This document shows, piece by piece, positions 3,498-63,464 of a stretch of DNA of 64,000 nt (position 1 is the first letter of the stretch; each line of letters begins with the position of its first letter). Origin of the DNA: an uncultured Mycoplasmatota bacterium (GTDB taxonomy: Bacteria > Bacillota_I > Bacilli_A > RF39 > UBA660); assembly GCA_947574215.1 (NCBI GenBank), contig CANPIX010000002.1, positions 4,490-68,489 on the forward strand. The letters are read 5' to 3'. A program made the position numbers and the translations under genes. Under the pieces are notes generated by a model. That model made no database searches and had not been told where the DNA came from. It saw only the letters and a list, made by a program, of their open reading frames with translations.

Positions 3498-5219
3498 TTA
3501 AAGTTTATAATTAATATACATTAATTCCATACTATTATATAGCAAGTTTTGATAAATTTCTTTTAATAAATATTGGCAATACACTGATCTAGTGTCTATT
3601 TTTAAGTTTTCATTAAAACCTAAAACATATATTATTTTTTTATTTCTAAACATATCCTTAAACTCATTTTTAGAAATAATTCTTTTATCTTCTTCGTTTA
3701 ATTTATCATAATATTGTTCTAAAATATTAGGCTCATTATCCCTAGCTCTACTAATTATTGAAGATGAAGTAAATACTTGATTTTCTAAATCACGCATCCC
3801 TGGTCCATTAAATTCACTTTTATTACACATTAAATAAACCGAATCATCATCCCAAAAAATCAAGTCTGCTATTTCAACATTTTTAAAATTTTTTTTATGA
3901 GCAAAAATAACATCATCAGATTCTTTAAAGGTTTCATTGTAATCATCTTCACATTTTTCATTCTTTTTCAAATTAAACGTTTTTACAATGCTATCATCTT
4001 CGCTTAAAATTATATCGCAAATATCTTTGTATTGTTGATTTAACATAGCAAAATAAGAATCCTCAAAAACATACCATTCACCATTTAATAAATAATAACT
4101 ATCACTTTCAATTTCTAAACAACCACGTATTAATGTAATAATCTTTGTTTGTGGGATAATTGTGTGTCCATTATCATCTAGAGTTAATAAATAATTGGAA
4201 TTTAAAAAATTCTTTATAAAATTGATACTCTTTTTTTTCTTACATTGTTCTACCATTAAACTAATTAAATCATCAAAACTAATTGGTTCTTCTTTTTTCA
4301 TTATTATACTATCATTATTTTTTATGATAAATTTATCTGACGAGAAGTAAAATGTTTCAATATCATCAGCTATAACTTCAAATGTTTCTATATTATTATT
4401 CAAAATACAATCATATAACAAATTGTTCAAATCTGATTTTTTCTTTCTTTTTTTCTCAGCAGGTACAAAGTAATTTAGAATAAAGTTATCTTCTTTTTTT
4501 GAAAGTTCAGATAAAGTATTTAGTACATTTTCAAGTATTTCAATAGATATGCTTTTTCTTATAACAAAGGAATCTCCACTTGATACACCTATTAATTTTT
4601 TGCTCTCTTCTACTGGAATACCCAATTTAGGAGCAAGTTCATTAGATATTTGTATTGAAAGTTCCTTATATATGCTGCCAATGTTACTTTCAGCAACTAA
4701 ACTACTCATATTTTTTGTAACTCTTCTAGTTGTTAAATTATTTCCACTAGTATTATTTTCTACAATTCTTTTTAAAACTGGATTATTTTTTTGTATTAAT
4801 TTAGGCAATAAATATAATCCAAAATTTTTCTTAATAAATTTAGATATATAATTACTTCCATGTCCACCTGTCATAACATATATTTCATCAGCAACTATTT
4901 TAAAAATTATATATGAAGAACTATCATTAAATATCTTAAATATTGTTTCATTTTCTTCGGTCATTTCCATCAAATTTAATATCAACGACTTCCAAATTGG
5001 CTCTCTTCTACTTTTTATAAAAAATATATAATATCCATTTTTTTCGTTTTTCTTAACATGATCTCTGCCACCACTTTTATTTATATAACATTCTAAATAA
5101 AATAATAATTTGTCCAATAATTCCTCTGTGCTATTTGTTTCATCAACATTATCTAAATTATCTAATATCTGTTGTTTAGAAATTTTATAAATGCTAAATT
5201 GAATTTCCTCTTTGTCCAT
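3498..5219 (-). CDS. Hypothetical protein, 573 aa, of unknown function. Candidate defence-island gene.
   Basis: Long minus-strand ORF with AT-rich codon usage consistent with its neighbours. I see no Walker A, HTH or other recognisable catalytic motif. It lies directly upstream of fic, the abrB-like gene and hsdM on the same strand. Confidence 0.6.
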   Translation of the reverse strand: MDKEEIQFSIYKISKQQILDNLDNVDETNSTEELLDKLLFYLECYINKSGGRDHVKKNEKNGYYIFFIKSRREPIWKSLILNLMEMTEENETIFKIFNDSSSYIIFKIVADEIYVMTGGHGSNYISKFIKKNFGLYLLPKLIQKNNPVLKRIVENNTSGNNLTTRRVTKNMSSLVAESNIGSIYKELSIQISNELAPKLGIPVEESKKLIGVSSGDSFVIRKSISIEILENVLNTLSELSKKEDNFILNYFVPAEKKRKKKSDLNNLLYDCILNNNIETFEVIADDIETFYFSSDKFIIKNNDSIIMKKEEPISFDDLISLMVEQCKKKKSINFIKNFLNSNYLLTLDDNGHTIIPQTKIITLIRGCLEIESDSYYLLNGEWYVFEDSYFAMLNQQYKDICDIILSEDDSIVKTFNLKKNEKCEDDYNETFKESDDVIFAHKKNFKNVEIADLIFWDDDSVYLMCNKSEFNGPGMRDLENQVFTSSSIISRARDNEPNILEQYYDKLNEEDKRIISKNEFKDMFRNKKIIYVLGFNENLKIDTRSVYCQYLLKEIYQNLLYNSMELMYINYKL

Positions 5220-26721: not shown

Positions 26722-27429
26722 CTACCTTCTAAATATATTTTTATAACTATTGTAATTATTTATATACAAAGGGTTCCTTACCTTTACTCCATTTTTACCA
26801 TTTTTAATACATTTTAGCAAAACCATACTTGCTTCTTTGTCATCTTTTGTATAAATAAATTGAATTTGTTTGGCAATTATGTGATATTTTTCGCATAAAT
26901 ATAAAATTTCTTCTAAACGTTCTGGGATATGCACCAAATAAAACGTTCCATATTCTTTTAAAGCGTAAAAAACGGTTCTAAATAAATCTTCTAACTGTAA
27001 ATGAATCTCATGACGTGCAATCGCTTTTTCCCTATTTTCATTTATTAAAGAACTTTCTTTGTATTTAAAATAAGGTGGATTTGCTATTACTATATCAAAA
27101 TTATTTCCCGGGAAATATTTGTGGATAACTTTTACATCATCCTGTATTACTTGTATTTGATCTTCCAAGTTATTAAGTTTTAGGCTTTCTTGGGCCAATA
27201 TAGCTATATATTCTTGTATTTCAAAAGCTACAATTTTGTTTGGGAAATAATTTGATAAGATTAATGGAATCACTCCATTTCCCGTACAGACATCTAAAAT
27301 CTTATCATTAGGTTTTACACCAGTTACAAATTCGGCAAGTAAAATGGAATCTAAAGAAAATTTAAAAACGTCACTATCTTGAACAATTTTTTTTGGTTCA
27401 TAATCGTACAAATCATTTATTATTTTCAT
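26722..27429 (-). CDS. Class I SAM-dependent methyltransferase (YabB/TrmN6-like tRNA m6A methyltransferase)
   Basis: 235 aa. SAM motif ILDVCTGNGVI and IANPPYF (an N6-adenine methyltransferase motif). Confidence 0.7.
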   Translation of the reverse strand: MKIINDLYDYEPKKIVQDSDVFKFSLDSILLAEFVTGVKPNDKILDVCTGNGVIPLILSNYFPNKIVAFEIQEYIAILAQESLKLNNLEDQIQVIQDDVKVIHKYFPGNNFDIVIANPPYFKYKESSLINENREKAIARHEIHLQLEDLFRTVFYALKEYGTFYLVHIPERLEEILYLCEKYHIIAKQIQFIYTKDDKEASMVLLKCIKNGKNGVKVRNPLYINNYNSYKNIFRR

Positions 27430-32419: not shown

Positions 32420-32493
32420 AAATAAATAATAACAATTTTTCTTTTATATTTCAAGAAGTTCCACGTGAAACATAGTTTATTTACACTTTCTTA

Positions 32494-32525
32494 TAAAAAA
32501 ATGTTCCACGTGGAACATTTTTTTA
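32494..32525 (-). terminator. Rho-independent terminator after gyrA (perfect palindrome atgttccacgtggaacat flanked by A/T runs; bidirectional)
   Basis: An 18-nt perfect palindrome at 32501-32518 immediately after the gyrA stop (32523-32525), followed on the minus strand by T7. Confidence 0.7.
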
Positions 32526-38155: not shown

Positions 38156-38641
38156 TTATTTTTGAATTTTTCGATCTTTCAATACGGATTCTAATCTTGT
38201 TGCTCTCAATATTTGATTATTAATCGTTTCATAAGAAATATTTAATAAAATTTTATCCCCATTTTTAAATTCTACTACTAAGTGATTGTTTTGGTAATAA
38301 TAATTTTTAATTTTATTAGAACGCAACCAAGAACAATTTTTTTGTTTTGGACTAGATGTAGGAAAAAAAATTAAATCTTTACTTTCTTCTACGATTATTG
38401 GAACTTTATAGGTGACACCAATTAAATTATTTGTCCCTTTCTTTCTTCCATCCATAGAACTTCCAAAATAAGAACAACTGGTTTCCATAATTTCATTTGC
38501 AGATTGATCTACCACAAAATTTTTATCTTCCTCATAAATTCTTGTTTTATTAGACATAGAAAATAATGCAACCGTATTTTCATTGATCTCATACTTTTCC
38601 ATAGTTTCACCTCCCACCTGATTAAAATTGTTTTCTATCAT
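38156..38641 (-). CDS. comK: ComK-family competence transcription factor homologue
   Basis: 161 aa. SCSYFGSSMDGRKKGT, LIFFPTSSPKQKNCSWL and NNQILRATRLESVLKDR align with B. subtilis ComK blocks (SCRFFGSSYAGRKAGT, IFLFPTLSSTRPQCGWI, ENQVYRTAWLRTKFQDR) as I recall them. Confidence 0.6.
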   Translation of the reverse strand: MIENNFNQVGGETMEKYEINENTVALFSMSNKTRIYEEDKNFVVDQSANEIMETSCSYFGSSMDGRKKGTNNLIGVTYKVPIIVEESKDLIFFPTSSPKQKNCSWLRSNKIKNYYYQNNHLVVEFKNGDKILLNISYETINNQILRATRLESVLKDRKIQK

Positions 38642-47269: not shown

Positions 47270-47979
47270 ATAAAGAAGAATTTATACAAGAACTTAATAA
47301 ACTCAATATAGAAATTAACGAAGAACAATTAAAATATTTAGAAATTTATAAAACGTTTTTATTGGATTACAATAAACATACAAATTTAACAGCAATCAAA
47401 GAAGAAAAAGAAATATACTTAAAACACTTTTATGATTCCTTGACAATAAGTAATTTTTTAGAAAAAGAAAACAAAGTTTTAGATATTGGAACAGGTGCTG
47501 GTTTTCCAGGTATGGTTCTTGCTTTATTTCATCCAAATATCAATTTTGTCTTATTGGATTCCAATAACAAGAAAACAACTTTTTTAAATTTATTAAAAGA
47601 AAAACTTAGTTTAAAAAATGTTGAAGTTGTGCATGCTCGAGCAGAAAATTATGTAAAAGAGCATTTAGAAGAATTTGACATTGTAACTTCAAGAGCGGTG
47701 GCGGAATTAAGAATTTTAGCAGAACTTTCTCTTCCCGCTTTGAAAATAAAAGGAAAATTTATACCTCTTAAAGCCAATATTGAAAAAGAAATGCCCCTAT
47801 TTTTGGATGCTTTAAAAGAACTAAACGGCCAATTAATTGAAAAAAAAGAATTTTATCTACCTATTGAAAATAGCAAAAGATCCGTATTGATCATAGAACA
47901 TTTTTTGAAAACAAATTCAATTTATCCAAGAAGTTATGACAAAATTCTAAAAAAGCCATTGAAAATAAAAAAGAAATAA
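47266..47979 (+). CDS. rsmG: 16S rRNA m7G527 methyltransferase RsmG (GidB)
   Basis: 237 aa. VLDIGTGAGFPG is the SAM motif. It overlaps the mnmG stop. Confidence 0.9.
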   Translation: MNKEEFIQELNKLNIEINEEQLKYLEIYKTFLLDYNKHTNLTAIKEEKEIYLKHFYDSLTISNFLEKENKVLDIGTGAGFPGMVLALFHPNINFVLLDSNNKKTTFLNLLKEKLSLKNVEVVHARAENYVKEHLEEFDIVTSRAVAELRILAELSLPALKIKGKFIPLKANIEKEMPLFLDALKELNGQLIEKKEFYLPIENSKRSVLIIEHFLKTNSIYPRSYDKILKKPLKIKKK

Positions 47980-48014
47980 GGTATATTAATAATAGGCTAA
48001 AGGGGCTGATTAGT

Positions 48015-49751
48015 ATGAATATCGATAAAAATATTCTAGAAGTACCAATTGAGGATATTATTCCCAATCGTTTTCAACCAAGACTTGCATTTAATGAAGA
48101 AGGAATCAATGAATTGTCTGAATCTATAAAAGAGCATGGGATTATTCAACCCCTTGTTGTAAGAAAATTAGGAGACAAATACGAAATTATTGCTGGGGAA
48201 CGTCGATACAAAGCATCTACGATGGCAGGTCTTACAAAAGTTCCAGTAATTATTTCAGATATAGATGATAATAAAAGTGCAGAGGTGGCTTTAGTGGAAA
48301 ACATTCAAAGAAGAAATCTAACCGCAATTGAAGAAGCAAAATCTTATAAAAATTTATTAGACAGAGGTTATTTAACACAAGAACAACTTGCTAACAAAAT
48401 GGGTGTTAGTCAAAGTGCTATTGCAAATAAATTACGTCTTTTAAATTTAGATGAAGAAGTACAAGAAGCTTTATTAAACGAAAAAATTTCGGAACGCCAT
48501 GCAAGATCATTACTTACTTTAGAAGATAAAGAAGATCAAAAAAAATGGTTAAAGCGCATAATTGAAGAAAGATTGACTGTAAGACAATTGGATTTAAAAT
48601 TAAAAAAACAACAAGAAGATGGAGAAGAGGATGAAATTCCATTAGTAAATATTAATCCGAATTTGGATGAAATCGTATCTCACGCTGAAGATATTCATGT
48701 TGAACGTACACCACATGACGTAGCTAGTATGTTAATACCCGAAGGAGGAATTTCTCTTCCAGAACAAAAAGAAGCCATTGAAACTGTAAAATCGACTAAT
48801 AAATTTTTTAATTTTTTAGAAGATGAACAAGCAAATATGAGCGTTGTGGAACCGGATGAGATTTTTAATTCCTTTATTGAAGAACCAAAAAATGAACCAC
48901 AAGAAATAAAAGAGGAAATAAAACCTACATCTGTATCATTAGATGAAATTTTAAATCCAAATCCAGCGACACAAAGTATAGAACCAAATAAAGAAAAAGA
49001 AGAAACTATTTTGGAACCTTTAGAAATTTTAGATGATTTGGATATTCCAATATTTGAATCAATCAAAGAAGAAACTCCAGAAAAATTGGATAGTTTAGAC
49101 AATACTTTTTTAAAAGAAAATATTGAAGAAAATAATTTCTCTGAAATACCGTTAATAGAAGACTTACAAGAGAAAGAACCTATTTTTAATGAAATATCTA
49201 CAATAGAAAATAAAGATCCAATAGAAACTTCTCCAGAAGATTTAAAAATCAGTATAGAAGATCAAAAAGATAATAATCCGTTACCAATTGTAGAAGAAGT
49301 TGTTCCAACTTTTATAAAAAATGATAGAGTGGAAGAACAAGAAGTAACTTCAAATAATCAACTGATTGAAGAAAAAATATTCCAAAATGATGAAAATATT
49401 GATGAGGATAACGAAGAAGCAAAACCATTTAAATCTATATTTTTTCATAATGAAGAAGAGGATGAAACTGCTCCAATTGTAGAAAATCCTATTTTAGCGA
49501 ATCAAATACAAGAAATAGAACCAGTTATTGAGGAACCAATAGTGGATCCTCTAGATCGTATTGTTACTTTAGAACCAGGTTATGAGCAAAAACAACAAGA
49601 ACTTGCAGGTACAGATTTAAAAACGGCAATTAATATTGTTAGAACTACAGTTAAAGACTTAGAAGACCGTGGATTTATTGTAGAAAGTGAAGAAGCCGAT
49701 TTGGAAGAAATTTATCATATTACGATAAAAATTAATAAAGAAAATAAATAA
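48015..49751 (+). CDS. ParB/Noc-family protein with a ~370-aa acidic low-complexity C-terminal extension
   Basis: The N-terminal ~200 aa is ParB-like (IQPLVVRK, GERRYKAS, an HTH QEQLANKMGVSQSAIANKLRLL). The remainder is E/D/P/I-rich repeats ending in a short ordered segment (TAINIVRTTVKDLEDRGFIV). No parA/soj is adjacent. Confidence 0.8.
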   Translation: MNIDKNILEVPIEDIIPNRFQPRLAFNEEGINELSESIKEHGIIQPLVVRKLGDKYEIIAGERRYKASTMAGLTKVPVIISDIDDNKSAEVALVENIQRRNLTAIEEAKSYKNLLDRGYLTQEQLANKMGVSQSAIANKLRLLNLDEEVQEALLNEKISERHARSLLTLEDKEDQKKWLKRIIEERLTVRQLDLKLKKQQEDGEEDEIPLVNINPNLDEIVSHAEDIHVERTPHDVASMLIPEGGISLPEQKEAIETVKSTNKFFNFLEDEQANMSVVEPDEIFNSFIEEPKNEPQEIKEEIKPTSVSLDEILNPNPATQSIEPNKEKEETILEPLEILDDLDIPIFESIKEETPEKLDSLDNTFLKENIEENNFSEIPLIEDLQEKEPIFNEISTIENKDPIETSPEDLKISIEDQKDNNPLPIVEEVVPTFIKNDRVEEQEVTSNNQLIEEKIFQNDENIDEDNEEAKPFKSIFFHNEEEDETAPIVENPILANQIQEIEPVIEEPIVDPLDRIVTLEPGYEQKQQELAGTDLKTAINIVRTTVKDLEDRGFIVESEEADLEEIYHITIKINKENK

Positions 49752-49788
49752 AAACTTATCAACAAAATGATTGATAAGTTTTTTTATT
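49752..49788. terminator. Bidirectional rho-independent terminator between the parB-like gene and the convergent PBP gene
   Basis: aacttatcaa-caaaatga-ttgataagtt is a 10-bp perfect stem followed by T7, with an A-run on the other side. Confidence 0.7.
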
Positions 49789-51730
49789 CAGTGGTATTTA
49801 CATCAGGACTTATAGAATTTCCTTCGCTACCTTTTACATAATAAAATACACTAGCATTTCCATTTGTAACAGGCTTACCAGTTACAGGATCTTGTAAAAT
49901 GCCAACAATGTTACTAGGGGTTTCGTACCAATTGTCTTCCTTATCTTTTAAAAAATCTTCAATTGTATTGATCCAAATACTTTTTGCCCACTTACTTGCT
50001 TCATTTGTTATGTCACTTGCATCATCATATCCAAGCCATACCATTAATAAAGCATCCTTATTATACCCTACCGTCCAATAATCCGTTTTGGTTGTGCCAG
50101 TTTTCAAAGCGTATTTTTTACTCATTTTACTTGCTATAGAAAGAGCGGTTGGAGTTGTATAACTTTGAAATTTAACGTTGCTTGTATTGGATAGCATTTC
50201 ATTTAGTATATATACATAATTAGAATTTAATACCATTTTCTTTTTATTTTTATGTTCATACAAAATATGCCCATTTAAATCTTCTACTCTTTCAATGAAA
50301 TAATTATCCGTTAAATATCCCCCATTTGCTAAAGTCGTATATCCATTAGCAAAATGTAGCATTGACATCTCACTTGTTCCTAAAGCCAAAGAAGGATTAG
50401 CAATTAATTCATCTTTTATTCCCATCTTTTCTGCAGTGTTTACTAAGGTTTCTTCTCCTAAAAATAAATGTGTTTTTACAGCATAAATATTATCAGAATA
50501 GGCAAGAGCAGCAGCCATCGTTATATTTTTGTTTGCATATACATCGTTATAGTTATTAGGATGATAAGTTTGATTATTAGCAAAAACAAAATTGGTAGGT
50601 TCACTTACAAAAGTTGAAGAAGAAGTCATTCCATTTTCTAAAGCTGCATAGTAAAGAAAAGGCTTCATAGTTGATCCAACTTGTCTTTTTGCTTGTATTG
50701 CACGATTAAATTGCGTTTCAGCGTAGTTTGTACCACCTGTTAAAGCCCTAACCGCTCCACTTTCTGGATCCACTAAAATACTAGCAACTTGTAATTTATC
50801 ATCTTTTATGTTTTCAAGTATTTCTTCTTCTAATTTTGTTTGAGCATTCAAATCCAAACTAGTATAAATTTTCAAACTTCCAGAATCAAGTAATGAAGTA
50901 GGAATTCCATTTAAAGTTTCTAATTCTTTTAAAACAGCGTCTTGGTAATACATTAGCATTTGTAAATTGTTTGTTTCTCGTTTTCCATAAATTTCAATTT
51001 TTTCTTTAAATAAGTTGTTGTAAGTGTCTTCTTCCATTACCCCATTATTTTTCATAGATAAGGCAACAATTTTTGCACGTTCAATACATTTATCATAATT
51101 TTTTACTGGATTGTAGTTACTAGGATTTTTAGGAATTCCAGCAAGCATTAAAGATTCCTCTAAGGTAAGATCACTTGCTCTTTTATTAAAATAATATTTA
51201 CTAGCGTTTAAAACTCCATAATTCCCAGCACCAAAATTAATTGTATTTAGATACCCTTCTAAAATTTCATCTTTATCATAATGTACTTCTAATTCTAAAG
51301 TTAAAAAAGCTTCTTCTATTTTTCTTTTCCAAGTTTGATTGAAGTCCAAATACATATTTTTAATATATTGTTGACTGATAGTAGAAGCGCCTTGCACAAT
51401 GCTCTTATTTTTGATATTAAGTGCCATAGCTTTAGCGATTCGTAAATAATCAAATCCTTGGTGTTTGTAAAAATTTTTATCTTCCACATTTATAACCGCA
51501 TCAATTAAATAAGGAGAAATTTCATTTAAATTTACCCATTCGCTACTTCCGCTTCCTTGATAAACCAAATTTTCATCTTTATCATAAATATACATTTGGC
51601 CTATACTTGTAAGCTCTAATTTGGGGCTAAAATAGGCATAAGTATAAAGACCTGTCATTACAATTACAAAAGCTAAAAATAAAAAAACTCCAAATTTTAA
51701 TAAAAAGCGTATTTTTCGCATAGTATTCAC
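49784..51730 (-). CDS. Class A penicillin-binding protein (transglycosylase plus transpeptidase)
   Basis: 648 aa. An N-terminal TM. GT51 motifs (EDKNFYKHQGFD, GASTISQQ) and a transpeptidase SxxK (GSTMKPF) with downstream KTG. Confidence 0.8.
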   Translation of the reverse strand: MNTMRKIRFLLKFGVFLFLAFVIVMTGLYTYAYFSPKLELTSIGQMYIYDKDENLVYQGSGSSEWVNLNEISPYLIDAVINVEDKNFYKHQGFDYLRIAKAMALNIKNKSIVQGASTISQQYIKNMYLDFNQTWKRKIEEAFLTLELEVHYDKDEILEGYLNTINFGAGNYGVLNASKYYFNKRASDLTLEESLMLAGIPKNPSNYNPVKNYDKCIERAKIVALSMKNNGVMEEDTYNNLFKEKIEIYGKRETNNLQMLMYYQDAVLKELETLNGIPTSLLDSGSLKIYTSLDLNAQTKLEEEILENIKDDKLQVASILVDPESGAVRALTGGTNYAETQFNRAIQAKRQVGSTMKPFLYYAALENGMTSSSTFVSEPTNFVFANNQTYHPNNYNDVYANKNITMAAALAYSDNIYAVKTHLFLGEETLVNTAEKMGIKDELIANPSLALGTSEMSMLHFANGYTTLANGGYLTDNYFIERVEDLNGHILYEHKNKKKMVLNSNYVYILNEMLSNTSNVKFQSYTTPTALSIASKMSKKYALKTGTTKTDYWTVGYNKDALLMVWLGYDDASDITNEASKWAKSIWINTIEDFLKDKEDNWYETPSNIVGILQDPVTGKPVTNGNASVFYYVKGSEGNSISPDVNTTE

Positions 51731-53917: not shown

Positions 53918-54346
53918 ATGAAATTAAAAGATTTAAGTCAAGAAGAATTGGAAAATATGTCTTATGACGATATTGCCTTTGTTATTCTTACAGAAAAAAA
54001 TGAGAAAATGAAAATTATTGATTTGTTTCAAGAAATAGGAAAACTAATTCATTTATCACAATCCGTAATCGAAGATAAAATTGGAGATTTTTTTGAAATG
54101 TTAACTTTAGATAAGCGTTTTATTATGCTGGATGACGGTTCGTGGGATTTAAAAACACGTCATGCTCAAAATGTGATCATTGAAGAGGAAGAAGATGACA
54201 TAAGTGTAGAAGAAGTTGAAGATTCTGAAGAAGAAAATGAAGACGAAGAAGTTTTTTATGATGAAAGTGAAGATGACGAAGCAGAAGACGATTTAAAAGA
54301 TTTAGTTGTAATAAGTGATGATGAAGACGAAGAATCCATGTTATAG
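53918..54346 (+). CDS. rpoE: DNA-directed RNA polymerase subunit delta
   Basis: 142 aa. The N-terminal LSQEELENMSYDDIAFVIL...RFIMLDDGSWDL resembles B. subtilis RpoE, and there is a polyacidic C-terminal tail. Confidence 0.75.
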   Translation: MKLKDLSQEELENMSYDDIAFVILTEKNEKMKIIDLFQEIGKLIHLSQSVIEDKIGDFFEMLTLDKRFIMLDDGSWDLKTRHAQNVIIEEEEDDISVEEVEDSEEENEDEEVFYDESEDDEAEDDLKDLVVISDDEDEESML

Positions 54347-57586: not shown

Positions 57587-58102
57587 GTGAAAAAAATGAA
57601 AAAAATAATTATTGTCTTATTTTTATTTACATTTGTATTTCTCATTTTACACGGAGAAGAAGAATATATTATTCCAAACAACGCGATTCGATTGAGAGTA
57701 GTAGCGAATAGCAATACGTTTGAAGATCAAGCAACAAAAATGGAAATAAAAAATAATATAGAGTCAATTTTAAAAAAAGATTTGATTGATATAAAAAGCG
57801 ATGTAGAAGCTGATCATATAATTAATCAAAAAATTCCTGAAATTAAAACAATGATTGACAACTATGATGTATCCTATAAATTAAATTATGGCCAAAATTA
57901 TTTTCCTGAAAAAAGTTACAAGGGAATTAAATATGAAGAAGGAAACTACGAATCGCTTGTAGTAACACTGGGAAAAGGAAAAGGTGATAATTGGTGGTGT
58001 GTTTTATTTCCTCCACTTTGCTTAATGGATGCCTCTACATCTAGTATGGAAGAAGTAGATTATAAATGGTTTGTACAAGATATATTTAAAAAATATATGT
58101 AA
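57587..58102 (+). CDS. spoIIR: Stage II sporulation protein R
   Basis: 171 aa. IPNNAIRLRVVANSN and GDNWWCVLFPPLC match the SpoIIR conserved blocks. It follows prfA-prmC as in B. subtilis. Confidence 0.85.
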   Translation: MKKMKKIIIVLFLFTFVFLILHGEEEYIIPNNAIRLRVVANSNTFEDQATKMEIKNNIESILKKDLIDIKSDVEADHIINQKIPEIKTMIDNYDVSYKLNYGQNYFPEKSYKGIKYEEGNYESLVVTLGKGKGDNWWCVLFPPLCLMDASTSSMEEVDYKWFVQDIFKKYM

Positions 58103-62552: not shown

Positions 62553-63464
62553 ATGAAAAACAAAATACTATTAGCAGTAGTAGTTGTTTTAAGTATTATA
62601 GCGTTAGGAGTGATAAGTAGTAAAAATACCAATCACTCTTTTTTTGATAAAGACGATACCATTAAAGTTAAAACAAAAGAAGAAAAAATCGAAGAGTTAA
62701 AAATTGAAGATTATTTGGTTGGAGTTCTAGCGGCTGAAATGCCAGCTTCTTTTGAAGTTGAAGCGCTAAAAGCTCAAGCAGTAGCTTCTCGTAGTTATGC
62801 AATGTATAAAATTTTACACAATGAAAGCGAAGAATATGATATTTTAACAGATGTAACCAATCAATCCTATATAACGAAAGAAGAGATGAAAAATAAGTGG
62901 GGAACTCATTATGATTTTTATTTAAATAAAATAACGAACGCTGTAAAAGATACTGAAAAAGAAGTCCTTTATTATGATGATGCAATTATTGAGGCATTTT
63001 ATTTTGCTATGAGTAATGGTGCAACAGAAGACGCTAAAAGCGTTTTTCAAAGTGATCTCCCTTACATAAAAGCTACAACTTCTTCATGGGATAATGAAAC
63101 TTTAAATAATTTTAAGGTAACAACGAAATTTCCAAAAAAAGCGTTTTGTGAAAGTTTAAAATTAGAAGAATGTAATAAAATTCAAATTGATAAAATCAAT
63201 CGAAGCGCTAGTCAAAGAGTAAATAGCCTAGTTATCAACAATCAAGAATTTTTAGGTACTGAAGTAAGAAAACTTTTAAATTTACGTTCTACCGATTTTG
63301 AAATAGATGTAAATAATGATGAAATTATTATTACAACAAAAGGATATGGCCATGGAGTAGGGATGAGTCAGTACGGTGCGAATGGTATGGCGAAGGAGGG
63401 GTACAACTACAAAGATATACTTGCACACTATTATAATGATATAACAATAAATAAAATGGTATAA
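62553..63464 (+). CDS. spoIID: Stage II sporulation protein D (lytic transglycosylase)
   Basis: 303 aa. ALKAQAVASRSYA and GYGHGVGMSQYGANGMA are SpoIID signature blocks. It follows murA as in B. subtilis. Confidence 0.85.
   Translation: MKNKILLAVVVVLSIIALGVISSKNTNHSFFDKDDTIKVKTKEEKIEELKIEDYLVGVLAAEMPASFEVEALKAQAVASRSYAMYKILHNESEEYDILTDVTNQSYITKEEMKNKWGTHYDFYLNKITNAVKDTEKEVLYYDDAIIEAFYFAMSNGATEDAKSVFQSDLPYIKATTSSWDNETLNNFKVTTKFPKKAFCESLKLEECNKIQIDKINRSASQRVNSLVINNQEFLGTEVRKLLNLRSTDFEIDVNNDEIIITTKGYGHGVGMSQYGANGMAKEGYNYKDILAHYYNDITINKMV

Follow-up and report, generated by a model that had tools for sequence, protein, structure and literature searches.

A noc-type gene with a long acidic linker and without the N-terminal membrane helix at the replication origin of an uncultured bacterium

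What kind of ParB-family protein is encoded directly downstream of rsmG in the origin region of an uncultured Mycoplasmatota bacterium, and what might be the role of the long acidic stretch within it? The question arises from a window of 64 kb (the whole stretch of DNA that was analysed, positions 4,490 to 68,489 of contig CANPIX010000002.1, GenBank assembly GCA_947574215.1), in which an open reading frame on the plus strand (48015..49751, 578 aa plus stop) had been described in a preliminary way as a singleton whose product could be either a Noc-like nucleoid-occlusion factor or a parS clamp dependent on cytidine triphosphate (CTP). The first of these readings is supported by the Noc family profile, by solved structures, by the residues that determine DNA specificity and by the product's C-terminal domain (CTD), and the open reading frame is referred to here as a long-linker gene of the noc type. 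Its folded parts are the following, pLDDT denoting the predicted local distance difference test score:

48030..48308, plus strand: ParB N-terminal domain of the CTP-binding type, residues 6-98 (Pfam PF02195, E 2.7e-34)
48315..48614, plus strand: HTH_ParB DNA-binding domain, residues 101-200 (Pfam PF17762, E 1.1e-32)
49494..49748, plus strand: island f together with the C-terminal dimerisation domain of the Noc type, residues 494-578 (pLDDT 64-93)

The Pfam matches confirm the order proposed earlier, a ParB N-domain with GERRYKAS (residues 61-68) followed by a helix-turn-helix. The N-domain motifs GERRYKA (residues 61-67, 48195-48215) and ENIQRRN (residues 95-101), by which CTP would be bound, are found in 115 and 110, respectively, of 117 family members; their general forms are GERRxRA and ENxQRxxL. 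In an AlphaFold2 model built on an alignment of 101 family sequences, residues 1-204 adopt a confident fold, and the closest solved structures by sequence as well as by fold are those of Noc (7ng0, 7nfu and 7ol9), which rank above Spo0J and ParB and to which the protein is 51-53% identical over about 200 residues. In particular, the best fold match of the N-domain is apo Noc (7nfu), and the DNA-binding domain (DBD) matches that of the Noc DBD complexed with the Noc-binding site (NBS; 6y93) with a target-normalised TM-score of 0.91-0.92. The NCBIfam profile TIGR04285 (nucleoid_noc) gives 292.6 bits in two stretches as compared to 188.5 for the generic parB profile, the score of B. subtilis Noc on TIGR04285 being 373.7 bits.

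At the other end of the protein, residues 524-575 match positions 204-255 of TIGR04285 (E 5.7e-6 with the C-terminal 79 residues searched) and no other family, are 32% identical to the CTD of B. subtilis Noc (BLASTP, E 2e-4) and are modelled confidently as a fold of two helices and two strands (residues 523-574). The short ordered segment previously suspected to be a dimerisation element has accordingly turned out to be a dimerisation-type domain of the ParB/Noc kind. By these profile and fold comparisons the gene is a descendant of noc, which encodes a ParB paralogue and comes after rsmG at the chromosome origins of Firmicutes; its clade consists of uncultured, spore-forming Bacilli of the gut with low GC content.

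The specificity of ParB and Noc for their DNA sites is set by four positions, which are R173, T179, A184 and G201 in ParB and Q, K, K and R in Noc (PMC7383237). While R173 and G201 are invariant in the parS-binding ParBs, Q173 and R201 perform the switch to the NBS; a lysine or arginine at 179 or 184 is permissive and is present at either of the two in 91% of the NBS-specific variants, and variants with dual specificity mostly have T or S at position 201 (PMC7383237). The corresponding residues of the present protein are Q133, K139, N144 and R161, i.e., both switching residues and one of the two permissive lysines. This combination, QKNR, occurs in 114 of the 117 aligned members, and Q and R at positions 173 and 201 occur in all 117. 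Judged by these residues, the protein is of the Noc type and not a parS-binding ParB, and the alternative of a CTP-dependent parS clamp is not supported, as Q133 and R161 stand in place of the invariant R173 and G201.

When the window was searched for both kinds of binding site, two near-perfect parS sites (see below) and one perfect NBS were found:

27102..27117, no strand assigned: perfect 16-bp NBS TATTTCCCGGGAAATA, the only one in the 64 kb window and the presumed loading site of the protein

About 1e-4 perfect NBS would be expected by chance in 64 kb, a figure that is our own estimate from base composition and not the output of a tool. The site lies in frame inside a methyltransferase gene, where it encodes Y-F-P-G-N by means of two rare codons, TTC (8% usage for Phe) and CCG (1% usage for Pro), and the same 16-mer is found at the orthologous position in the related loci L019 and L023, the methyltransferase orthologues being 41-51% identical; other orthologues have unrelated peptides at this place. 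The use of rare codons and the persistence of the site where the protein varies imply that the NBS is conserved at the DNA level, and as far as can be told from these orthologues it is maintained by selection. Four perfect NBS are present within 20 kb in L019. Neither NBS nor parS occurs in the noc loci of 11 relatives, a result that carries no information, as the corresponding part of the window lacks them too. A perfect DnaA box (TTATCCACA, minus strand, 27120-27128) is located 2 nt from the NBS of the window; this adjacency is not kept at the orthologous NBS in L019 and L023 and recurs beside the NBS sites in the parS array of L019.

Between the DBD and the CTD the protein contains a stretch made up of conserved islands and variable spacers, for which median identities to the query were taken, here and below, from an alignment of 117 members:

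48630..48743, plus strand: island a, residues 206-243 (IPLVNINPNLDEIVxxAEDIxVxRxPHDVASML), median identity 0.68
48792..48842, plus strand: island b, residues 260-276 (NKFFNFLEDEQANM), median identity 0.82
48885..49016, plus strand: variable acidic disordered spacer, residues 291-334, median identity 0.21, gap fraction 0.47, pLDDT <50
49017..49049, plus strand: island d, residues 335-345 (LEILDDLD), moderately conserved with a median identity of 0.45; E337 occurs in 90% or more of the members
49050..49415, plus strand: variable acidic disordered spacer, residues 346-467, median identity 0.27, gap fraction 0.64, pLDDT <50
49416..49445, plus strand: island e, residues 468-477 (KPFKSIFF), median identity 0.71

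Residues 206-520 consist of 20% E, 13% I, 9% P, 9% N and 8% D, and with 86 acidic and 22 basic residues have a net charge of -64. The preliminary description of a polyacidic disordered tail of 370 aa was therefore right with regard to acidity and disorder; however, the region comprises about 315 aa and is an internal linker between DBD and CTD with conserved islands in it. Disorder was predicted for the spacers, with pLDDT values below 50 at residues 245-259 and 287-497, and the same pattern was obtained in a second model, that of a 404-aa relative. As compared to a median identity of 0.86 for N-domain plus DBD and 0.71 for the CTD, that of the spacers overall is 0.19-0.27 with 47-64% gaps; that of island f (residues 494-520) is 0.56. 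The linker measures 142 to 363 aa across species (315 in this protein), the spacer at residues 346-467 being the main place of length variation, and its net charge per residue, which is negative in all members measured, ranges from -0.14 to -0.25.

Within island b, residues F264, F265, N266, F267, L268 and E271 are invariant among the 101 sequences, a helix is predicted at residues 266-274, and the motif [KR]FFNF[LT]E was found without exception in the family members that were read or scanned for the pattern. Island a has pLDDT values of 60-72 with short helices (residues 206-245). Of 96 members, 70 have PFKSIF as the motif of island e, and 15, shorter ones, have PFFFG. Island a, [KR]FFNF[LT]E and the CTD are all retained in distant members. 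In one distant branch (P0279, P0157) the linker is rich in Pro, Ala and Ser and not acidic, with at least five INPF repeats, and FFNFLE and the CTD are retained there, which suggests that the F-containing motifs, and not the charge, are the constant feature of the linker.

No match in Pfam or NCBIfam was obtained for residues 206-499, and an exhaustive phmmer search with residues 200-292 against 1.84 billion representatives returned only the family itself and one false positive, a repeat protein. Tandem repeats in the DNA of the linker were not detected, as Tandem Repeats Finder gave only trivial AT-rich matches of 17-44 nt. Thus, repeats, which had been suspected earlier as a source of assembly or length variation, are not present, and the length of 578 aa is the same in four assemblies; among relatives, on the other hand, the length of the linker does vary, from 142 to 363 aa. 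A derivation of the insert from a degenerate second copy of noc is unsupported, since an hhalign comparison of island a with the CTD and with canonical Noc gave matches of 6-10 residues only, with E-values of 0.05-0.26 and not in colinear order. The conserved C-terminal peptide of FtsZ has the form DIPxFL, and residues 338-347 (LDDLDIPIFE, 49026-49055) resemble it; however, the family keeps only E.LDDL and not IPxF, and this candidate mimic is probably a coincidence.

In view of the unusual length, the locus also raises the question of whether the gene is a real one. If an assembly error or a frameshift had joined a ParB gene to unrelated sequence, nothing apart from that length would speak for it, whereas an identical 578-aa protein is found in four independent assemblies of the same species, and the architecture is continuous in the homologues, which were drawn from NCBI, ENA, JGI and Logan and fall into more than 150 clusters at 90% identity (395-639 aa), with the same N-domain, islands and CTD. 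Moreover, a genuine Noc CTD stands in frame at the C-terminus, and there are no tandem repeats. The frameshifted fusion considered earlier is ruled out by the clusters, the four assemblies and the in-frame CTD, so that the chance of such an artefact is negligible. All family members come from metagenome-assembled genomes (MAGs) of uncultured "Bacilli" or "Tenericutes" from the gut of mouse, rabbit and other hosts, and they are currently annotated with the generic name "ParB/RepB/Spo0J partition protein".

A real gene might still be a decaying one, i.e., a Noc of a reduced genome that has lost its anchor and whose insert is a functionless, neutral growth of low-complexity sequence from AT-rich codon drift. 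The spacers do evolve very fast (identity about 0.2; 142-363 aa), the composition in E, I, N and K suits a genome of 27% GC, and the clade lies within lineages undergoing genome reduction (PMC10868615). However, the conservation of islands a, b, e and f is like that of the folded domains (0.68-0.82 as compared to 0.86) where the spacers cannot be aligned, more than 150 clusters have an undisrupted reading frame, the motifs for CTP and DNA binding are near-invariant, the NBS is held by selection against codon bias, and the net negative charge is kept in all members measured. Decay is therefore an improbable explanation.

What is missing from the protein is found at its N-terminus. Canonical Noc has an N-terminal amphipathic membrane-targeting helix (aa 1-14) that is highly conserved and needed for function (PMC4331003), and according to the current model it is freed when the N-domains engage upon CTP binding (PMC8429893). 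In the 120 clusters listed, the canonical N-terminus reads MKHPFSRFFGLGEKE and is followed by an acidic spacer. In contrast, all N-termini of the present family have only 17-19 residues ahead of the PNR motif and no amphipathic helix, and this protein, which begins MNIDKNILEVP, has 6 residues before the first strand as compared to about 27 in canonical Noc. An N-terminal extension is impossible because an in-frame stop lies 26 codons upstream of the ATG with no start codon in between. As read from these N-termini, the family protein is in effect a natural NocN-delta-26.

Could the phenylalanine motifs of the linker be a replacement for the lost helix? Island e (K-P-F-K-S-I-F-F, then an acidic run) is the segment that comes closest to the canonical helix; it can be aligned with the canonical H-P-F-S-R-F-F-G, which is likewise followed by an acidic run, and the single best local match of the insert profile to canonical Noc in hhalign pairs island e plus spacer with residues 4-33. 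When a position-specific scoring matrix (PSSM) derived from canonical Noc N-termini was used, island b or e was the best window in six of seven diverse members; in five of the seven the score was reached by 2-98 of 2000 composition-preserving shuffles, and for island e of this protein by 80 of 2000. The likeness of the F-motifs to the canonical helix is statistically weak and must be regarded as suggestive but not proven.

With a probability of about 0.5, the protein is a clamp of the Noc type in which the F-motifs act as effector, most likely by attachment to the membrane, and the acidic chain acts as a brush. The protein, dimerised through its C-terminal domain, would load at the 16-bp NBS by means of its NBS-specific helix-turn-helix, bind CTP at the conserved GERRYKA/ENIQRRN N-domain and close into a sliding clamp, the steps up to the effector being those of Noc. 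The effector part differs, as the canonical N-terminal amphipathic helix and helix alpha-2 are gone and the 20-aa linker between DBD and CTD is replaced by an acidic disordered chain of 142-363 residues. This chain bears a [KR]FFNF[LT]E helix that is near-universal and a second motif, PFKSIFF or PFFFG, that most members have. These phenylalanine motifs might now perform the effector function, most likely through weak multivalent membrane attachment, and the acidic chain might combine a long reach with an excluded-volume brush that holds the division machinery off the nucleoid and would thereby inhibit division.

Several observations weigh against this reading. The score of 292.6 bits is below the curated NCBI cut-off for Noc (315), the match being split in two by the insert, position 184 is occupied by asparagine and not by lysine, and only a single NBS is visible in 64 kb. 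One of the features by which Noc is defined, an N-terminal membrane helix linked to the N-domain gated by CTP, is absent, and for this reason the canonical Noc switch cannot work as described (PMC8429893). With regard to its proposed replacement, the hhalign match of island e to the canonical helix (E 0.16) is not significant by itself, the fractions of shuffles reaching the PSSM score in the other two of the seven members are 0.31 and 0.71, and no helix is predicted by AlphaFold for island e. In island b, finally, the invariant glutamate E271 lies within the hydrophobic face and the flanks are acidic, which speaks against a purely membrane-directed role and fits a specific contact with protein better than binding to an anionic membrane. 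The odds that the F-motifs are a membrane tether accordingly fall somewhat short of even.

These last features lead to the possibility that the same NBS-loaded Noc clamp uses the F-motifs, among them the invariant [KR]FFNF[LT]E helix, as short linear motifs for recruiting a specific protein, such as a division, replication or condensation factor, and so acts as a DNA-anchored adaptor instead of a bridge between DNA and membrane. N266 and E271, both polar, are strictly invariant inside the motif, and the flanks are acidic; membrane helices usually tolerate changes at such polar residues and have basic flanks. The INPF repeats, at least five in number, in the non-acidic Pro/Ala-rich linker of distant members look like a multivalent ligand array, and in the models island a (pLDDT 60-72) and island b seem to behave as conditionally folding elements. 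In addition, Noc of S. aureus is reported to have a role in replication initiation (PMC5540599), and the NBS of the window is 2 nt from a perfect DnaA box. On the other side, no candidate partner was identified, the conserved neighbourhood contains no co-varying gene, a protein partner of B. subtilis Noc has been searched for and none was found (PMC4331003), and there is a likeness between the motifs and the canonical membrane helix. An adaptor of this kind is consequently possible but doubtful, and a role of the F-motifs as recruiters of a protein partner is put forward with the same reserve.

Of the clamp model set out above, in which the F-motifs are the effector, a bolder version may also be formulated, namely that the effector has become separated from the N-terminus gated by CTP and now resides in the giant acidic linker, where it would be either a polyanionic brush with multivalent membrane contacts through F-motifs or a division or replication protein recruited by FFNFLE. 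In this form the proposal is rather unlikely. If it were true, the lumen of the clamp would have more than 10 times the usual contour length, and nucleoid occlusion would proceed by a mechanism distinct from the CTP-released N-terminal helix of B. subtilis. A literature search of incomplete coverage yielded no description of a Noc without N-terminal helix or with a long acidic linker.

If the protein is of the Noc type, does the chromosome have a ParB as well? The two parS sites of the window and the arrays found in relatives bear on this question:

32457..32517, no strand assigned: two near-perfect parS sites just downstream of gyrA, AGTTCCACGTGAAACA (32457-32472) and the perfect palindrome TGTTCCACGTGGAACA (32502-32517)
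L019, 4071-4967: parS array
L028, 3877-4948: parS array
L027, 1982-2973: parS array
L029, 4963-5587: parS array
L024, 4681-4838: parS array

The arrays of these five related loci comprise 2-9 consensus sites and lie at the same place as the sites of the window. In the array of L019, a DnaA-box-like TGTGGATAAC or TTTATAAC stands before each parS, and two NBS, one perfect and one with a single mismatch, are interleaved with the parS sites. The intergenic region just downstream of gyrA has the look of a compact centromere or of a cluster of DnaA boxes, and we know of no earlier description of such a cluster of parS sites and DnaA boxes.

As far as the encoding genes are concerned, tblastn searches with Soj and with the ParB domain revealed neither a parA (best E 3.1) nor another parB in the 64 kb window; both genes are likewise absent from the next 10 kb to the right of it, and neither soj nor spo0J was found by tblastn in the related loci L001-L038. 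Similarly, no Soj and no second chromosomal ParB was called at the noc locus of four further clade members with long contigs (L039-L044). The only further ParB-like protein, of 310 aa, is encoded in L002 (19425-20357) about 8 kb downstream of noc; its gene lies within inserted DNA, and it appears to be of the mobile-element or nuclease-like type and is not a chromosomal Spo0J. The earlier observation that the gene has no parA partner next to it was thus borne out at the locus across the whole clade. The label of a singleton, in turn, agrees with the lack of a second parB or parA in the window and the adjoining 10 kb but is made doubtful by the parS sites and by the arrays of the relatives.

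It might be assumed from these searches that the protein is the sole chromosomal ParB, binding the origin-proximal parS sites and serving segregation or SMC loading without a ParA as in Streptococcus pneumoniae. In favour of this scenario are the absence of any other ParB-family gene or parA from the 64 kb around oriC plus 10 kb, the two near-perfect parS sites 15 kb away and the absence, throughout the clade, of the ancestral soj-spo0J pair from the position it normally occupies. However, where parS-binding ParBs have the invariant R173 and G201 the protein carries Q and R, and dual-specificity variants mostly have T or S at position 201 (PMC7383237). Moreover, parS and NBS are both kept at exact consensus and are interleaved in L019, which argues for two proteins, the CTD and the overall profile are of the Noc type, and the N-terminus, as read from its sequence, has no Lys-rich peptide of the ParA/SMC type. 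A sole ParB is therefore very improbable. Both types of site at exact consensus, together with the Q and R of this protein, point to a separate ParB of the R..G type elsewhere in the genome; the sites at 32457-32517 are probably not targets of the noc-type protein, and a parS-binding ParB is probably encoded elsewhere.

The surroundings of the gene are those of a replication origin, with a change in the sign of the GC skew near 42 kb and nine perfect DnaA boxes in the window as compared to 0.7 expected. The order of genes is mfd-pth-...-dnaX-tadA-gyrA-gyrB-recF-comK-dnaN-dnaA on the minus strand and rnpA-yidC-jag-mnmE-mnmG-rsmG, followed by the noc-type gene, on the plus strand. As had been stated in the preliminary description, the gene directly follows rsmG (stop at 47979) and is itself followed by a convergent gene for a class A penicillin-binding protein (PBP; 49784-51730, minus strand). 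The place after rsmG is kept in 17 of 17 related loci examined, and the synteny comK-dnaN-dnaA / rnpA ... rsmG-noc / convergent PBP is alike in every subfamily examined. Ahead of the gene two signals were recognised by consensus match only:

47959-47987, plus strand: promoter-like TTGAAA-17-TATATT
48000-48005, plus strand: ribosome-binding site AAGGGG, 9 nt 5' of the ATG

Some further features of the window may be mentioned. A gene of the ComK family (38156-38641, minus strand) lies between dnaN and recF and is kept in all relatives examined (L039, L041, L043, L044); this location in the origin cluster is unusual for a competence regulator. The left end of the window (positions 1 to about 6000) is a mobile or defence island with Fic, a MazE-type antitoxin, an HsdM methylase, DUF6119 and a large serine recombinase, which in other assemblies was recovered on short contigs only (L013-L015). 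At 53918-54346 (plus strand) a 142-aa protein is encoded whose N-terminal half is folded, whose tail of Asp and Glu is strongly acidic and which resembles the RNA polymerase delta subunit (RpoE) of Firmicutes, so that acidic disordered tails in this genome are not confined to the Noc variant. Genes for spoIIR, spoIID, a SpoIIQ-like M23 peptidase and spoIIID were found (window 57587-58102 and 62553-63464; L016 11639-11896) alongside the class A PBP genes and show that a lineage whose MAGs are publicly labelled "Tenericutes" retains wall and endospore genes. Partly reduced orders of Bacilli, with lineages undergoing genome reduction, have been described (PMC10868615), and spoIIR, spoIID, spoIIID and the PBPs of this organism fit that picture.

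The clade may be of use because the current model of Noc relies on an amphipathic helix adjoining the CTP-gated N-domain. Here, a large natural clade has kept what by its residues is an NBS-specific clamp, has deleted the helix and has conserved F-motifs in an acidic linker of 150-360 residues, and it is thus ready to test whether the position of the tether matters, how the length of linker and lumen affects clamps of the ParB family, and whether nucleoid occlusion may work by excluded volume or through an adaptor. The clade stands among uncultured Bacilli in which cell wall and sporulation are being lost, and it therefore also bears on the rewiring of division control during genome reduction. 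With regard to annotation, these proteins score just below the Noc cut-off and are easily taken for the centromere-binding protein of the chromosome.

Compared with canonical Noc (B. subtilis YyaA, G. thermoleovorans Noc, TIGR04285), the family shares the place of the gene after rsmG, the CTP-type N-domain, Q, K and R at positions 173, 179 and 201, an identical 16-bp NBS in the genome and the Noc-type CTD. Unlike canonical Noc, it is without N-terminal amphipathic helix, helix alpha-2 and spacer, joins DBD and CTD by 142-363 aa (315 in this protein) where canonical Noc has about 20, has N in place of K at position 184, carries lineage-specific islands including [KR]FFNF[LT]E, and scores under the curated cut-off; in the 120 clusters of canonical Noc listed, the total length is 265-298 aa and nearly always 279-298. 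The protein thus descends from Noc, fails one defining feature and falls below the cut-off, and is a variant rather than a plain member.

With the chromosomal ParB/Spo0J proteins it has in common the overall fold, the CTP motif (GERRxRA in ParB), the helix-turn-helix, C-terminal dimerisation and a predicted sliding clamp, and the setting with parS sites near oriC is similar as well, although their presence is no proof that the noc-type protein binds them. It differs from these proteins by Q and R in place of R173 and G201, by the lack of an adjacent ParA and of an N-terminal ParA-stimulating peptide, by a predicted site that is the NBS and not parS, and by a far longer acidic linker. Arrangements without Soj are known from Streptococcus pneumoniae, with ParB, and from Staphylococcus aureus, with Noc and Spo0J. 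The ancestral cluster of Firmicutes has the order dnaA...gidB-noc-parA-parB (PMC8136486), and as in the Firmicutes lacking Soj, parA, and here parB too, has gone from it; in contrast to the arrangements of S. pneumoniae and S. aureus, however, the gene retained at the present locus is the Noc paralogue, in a remodelled form.

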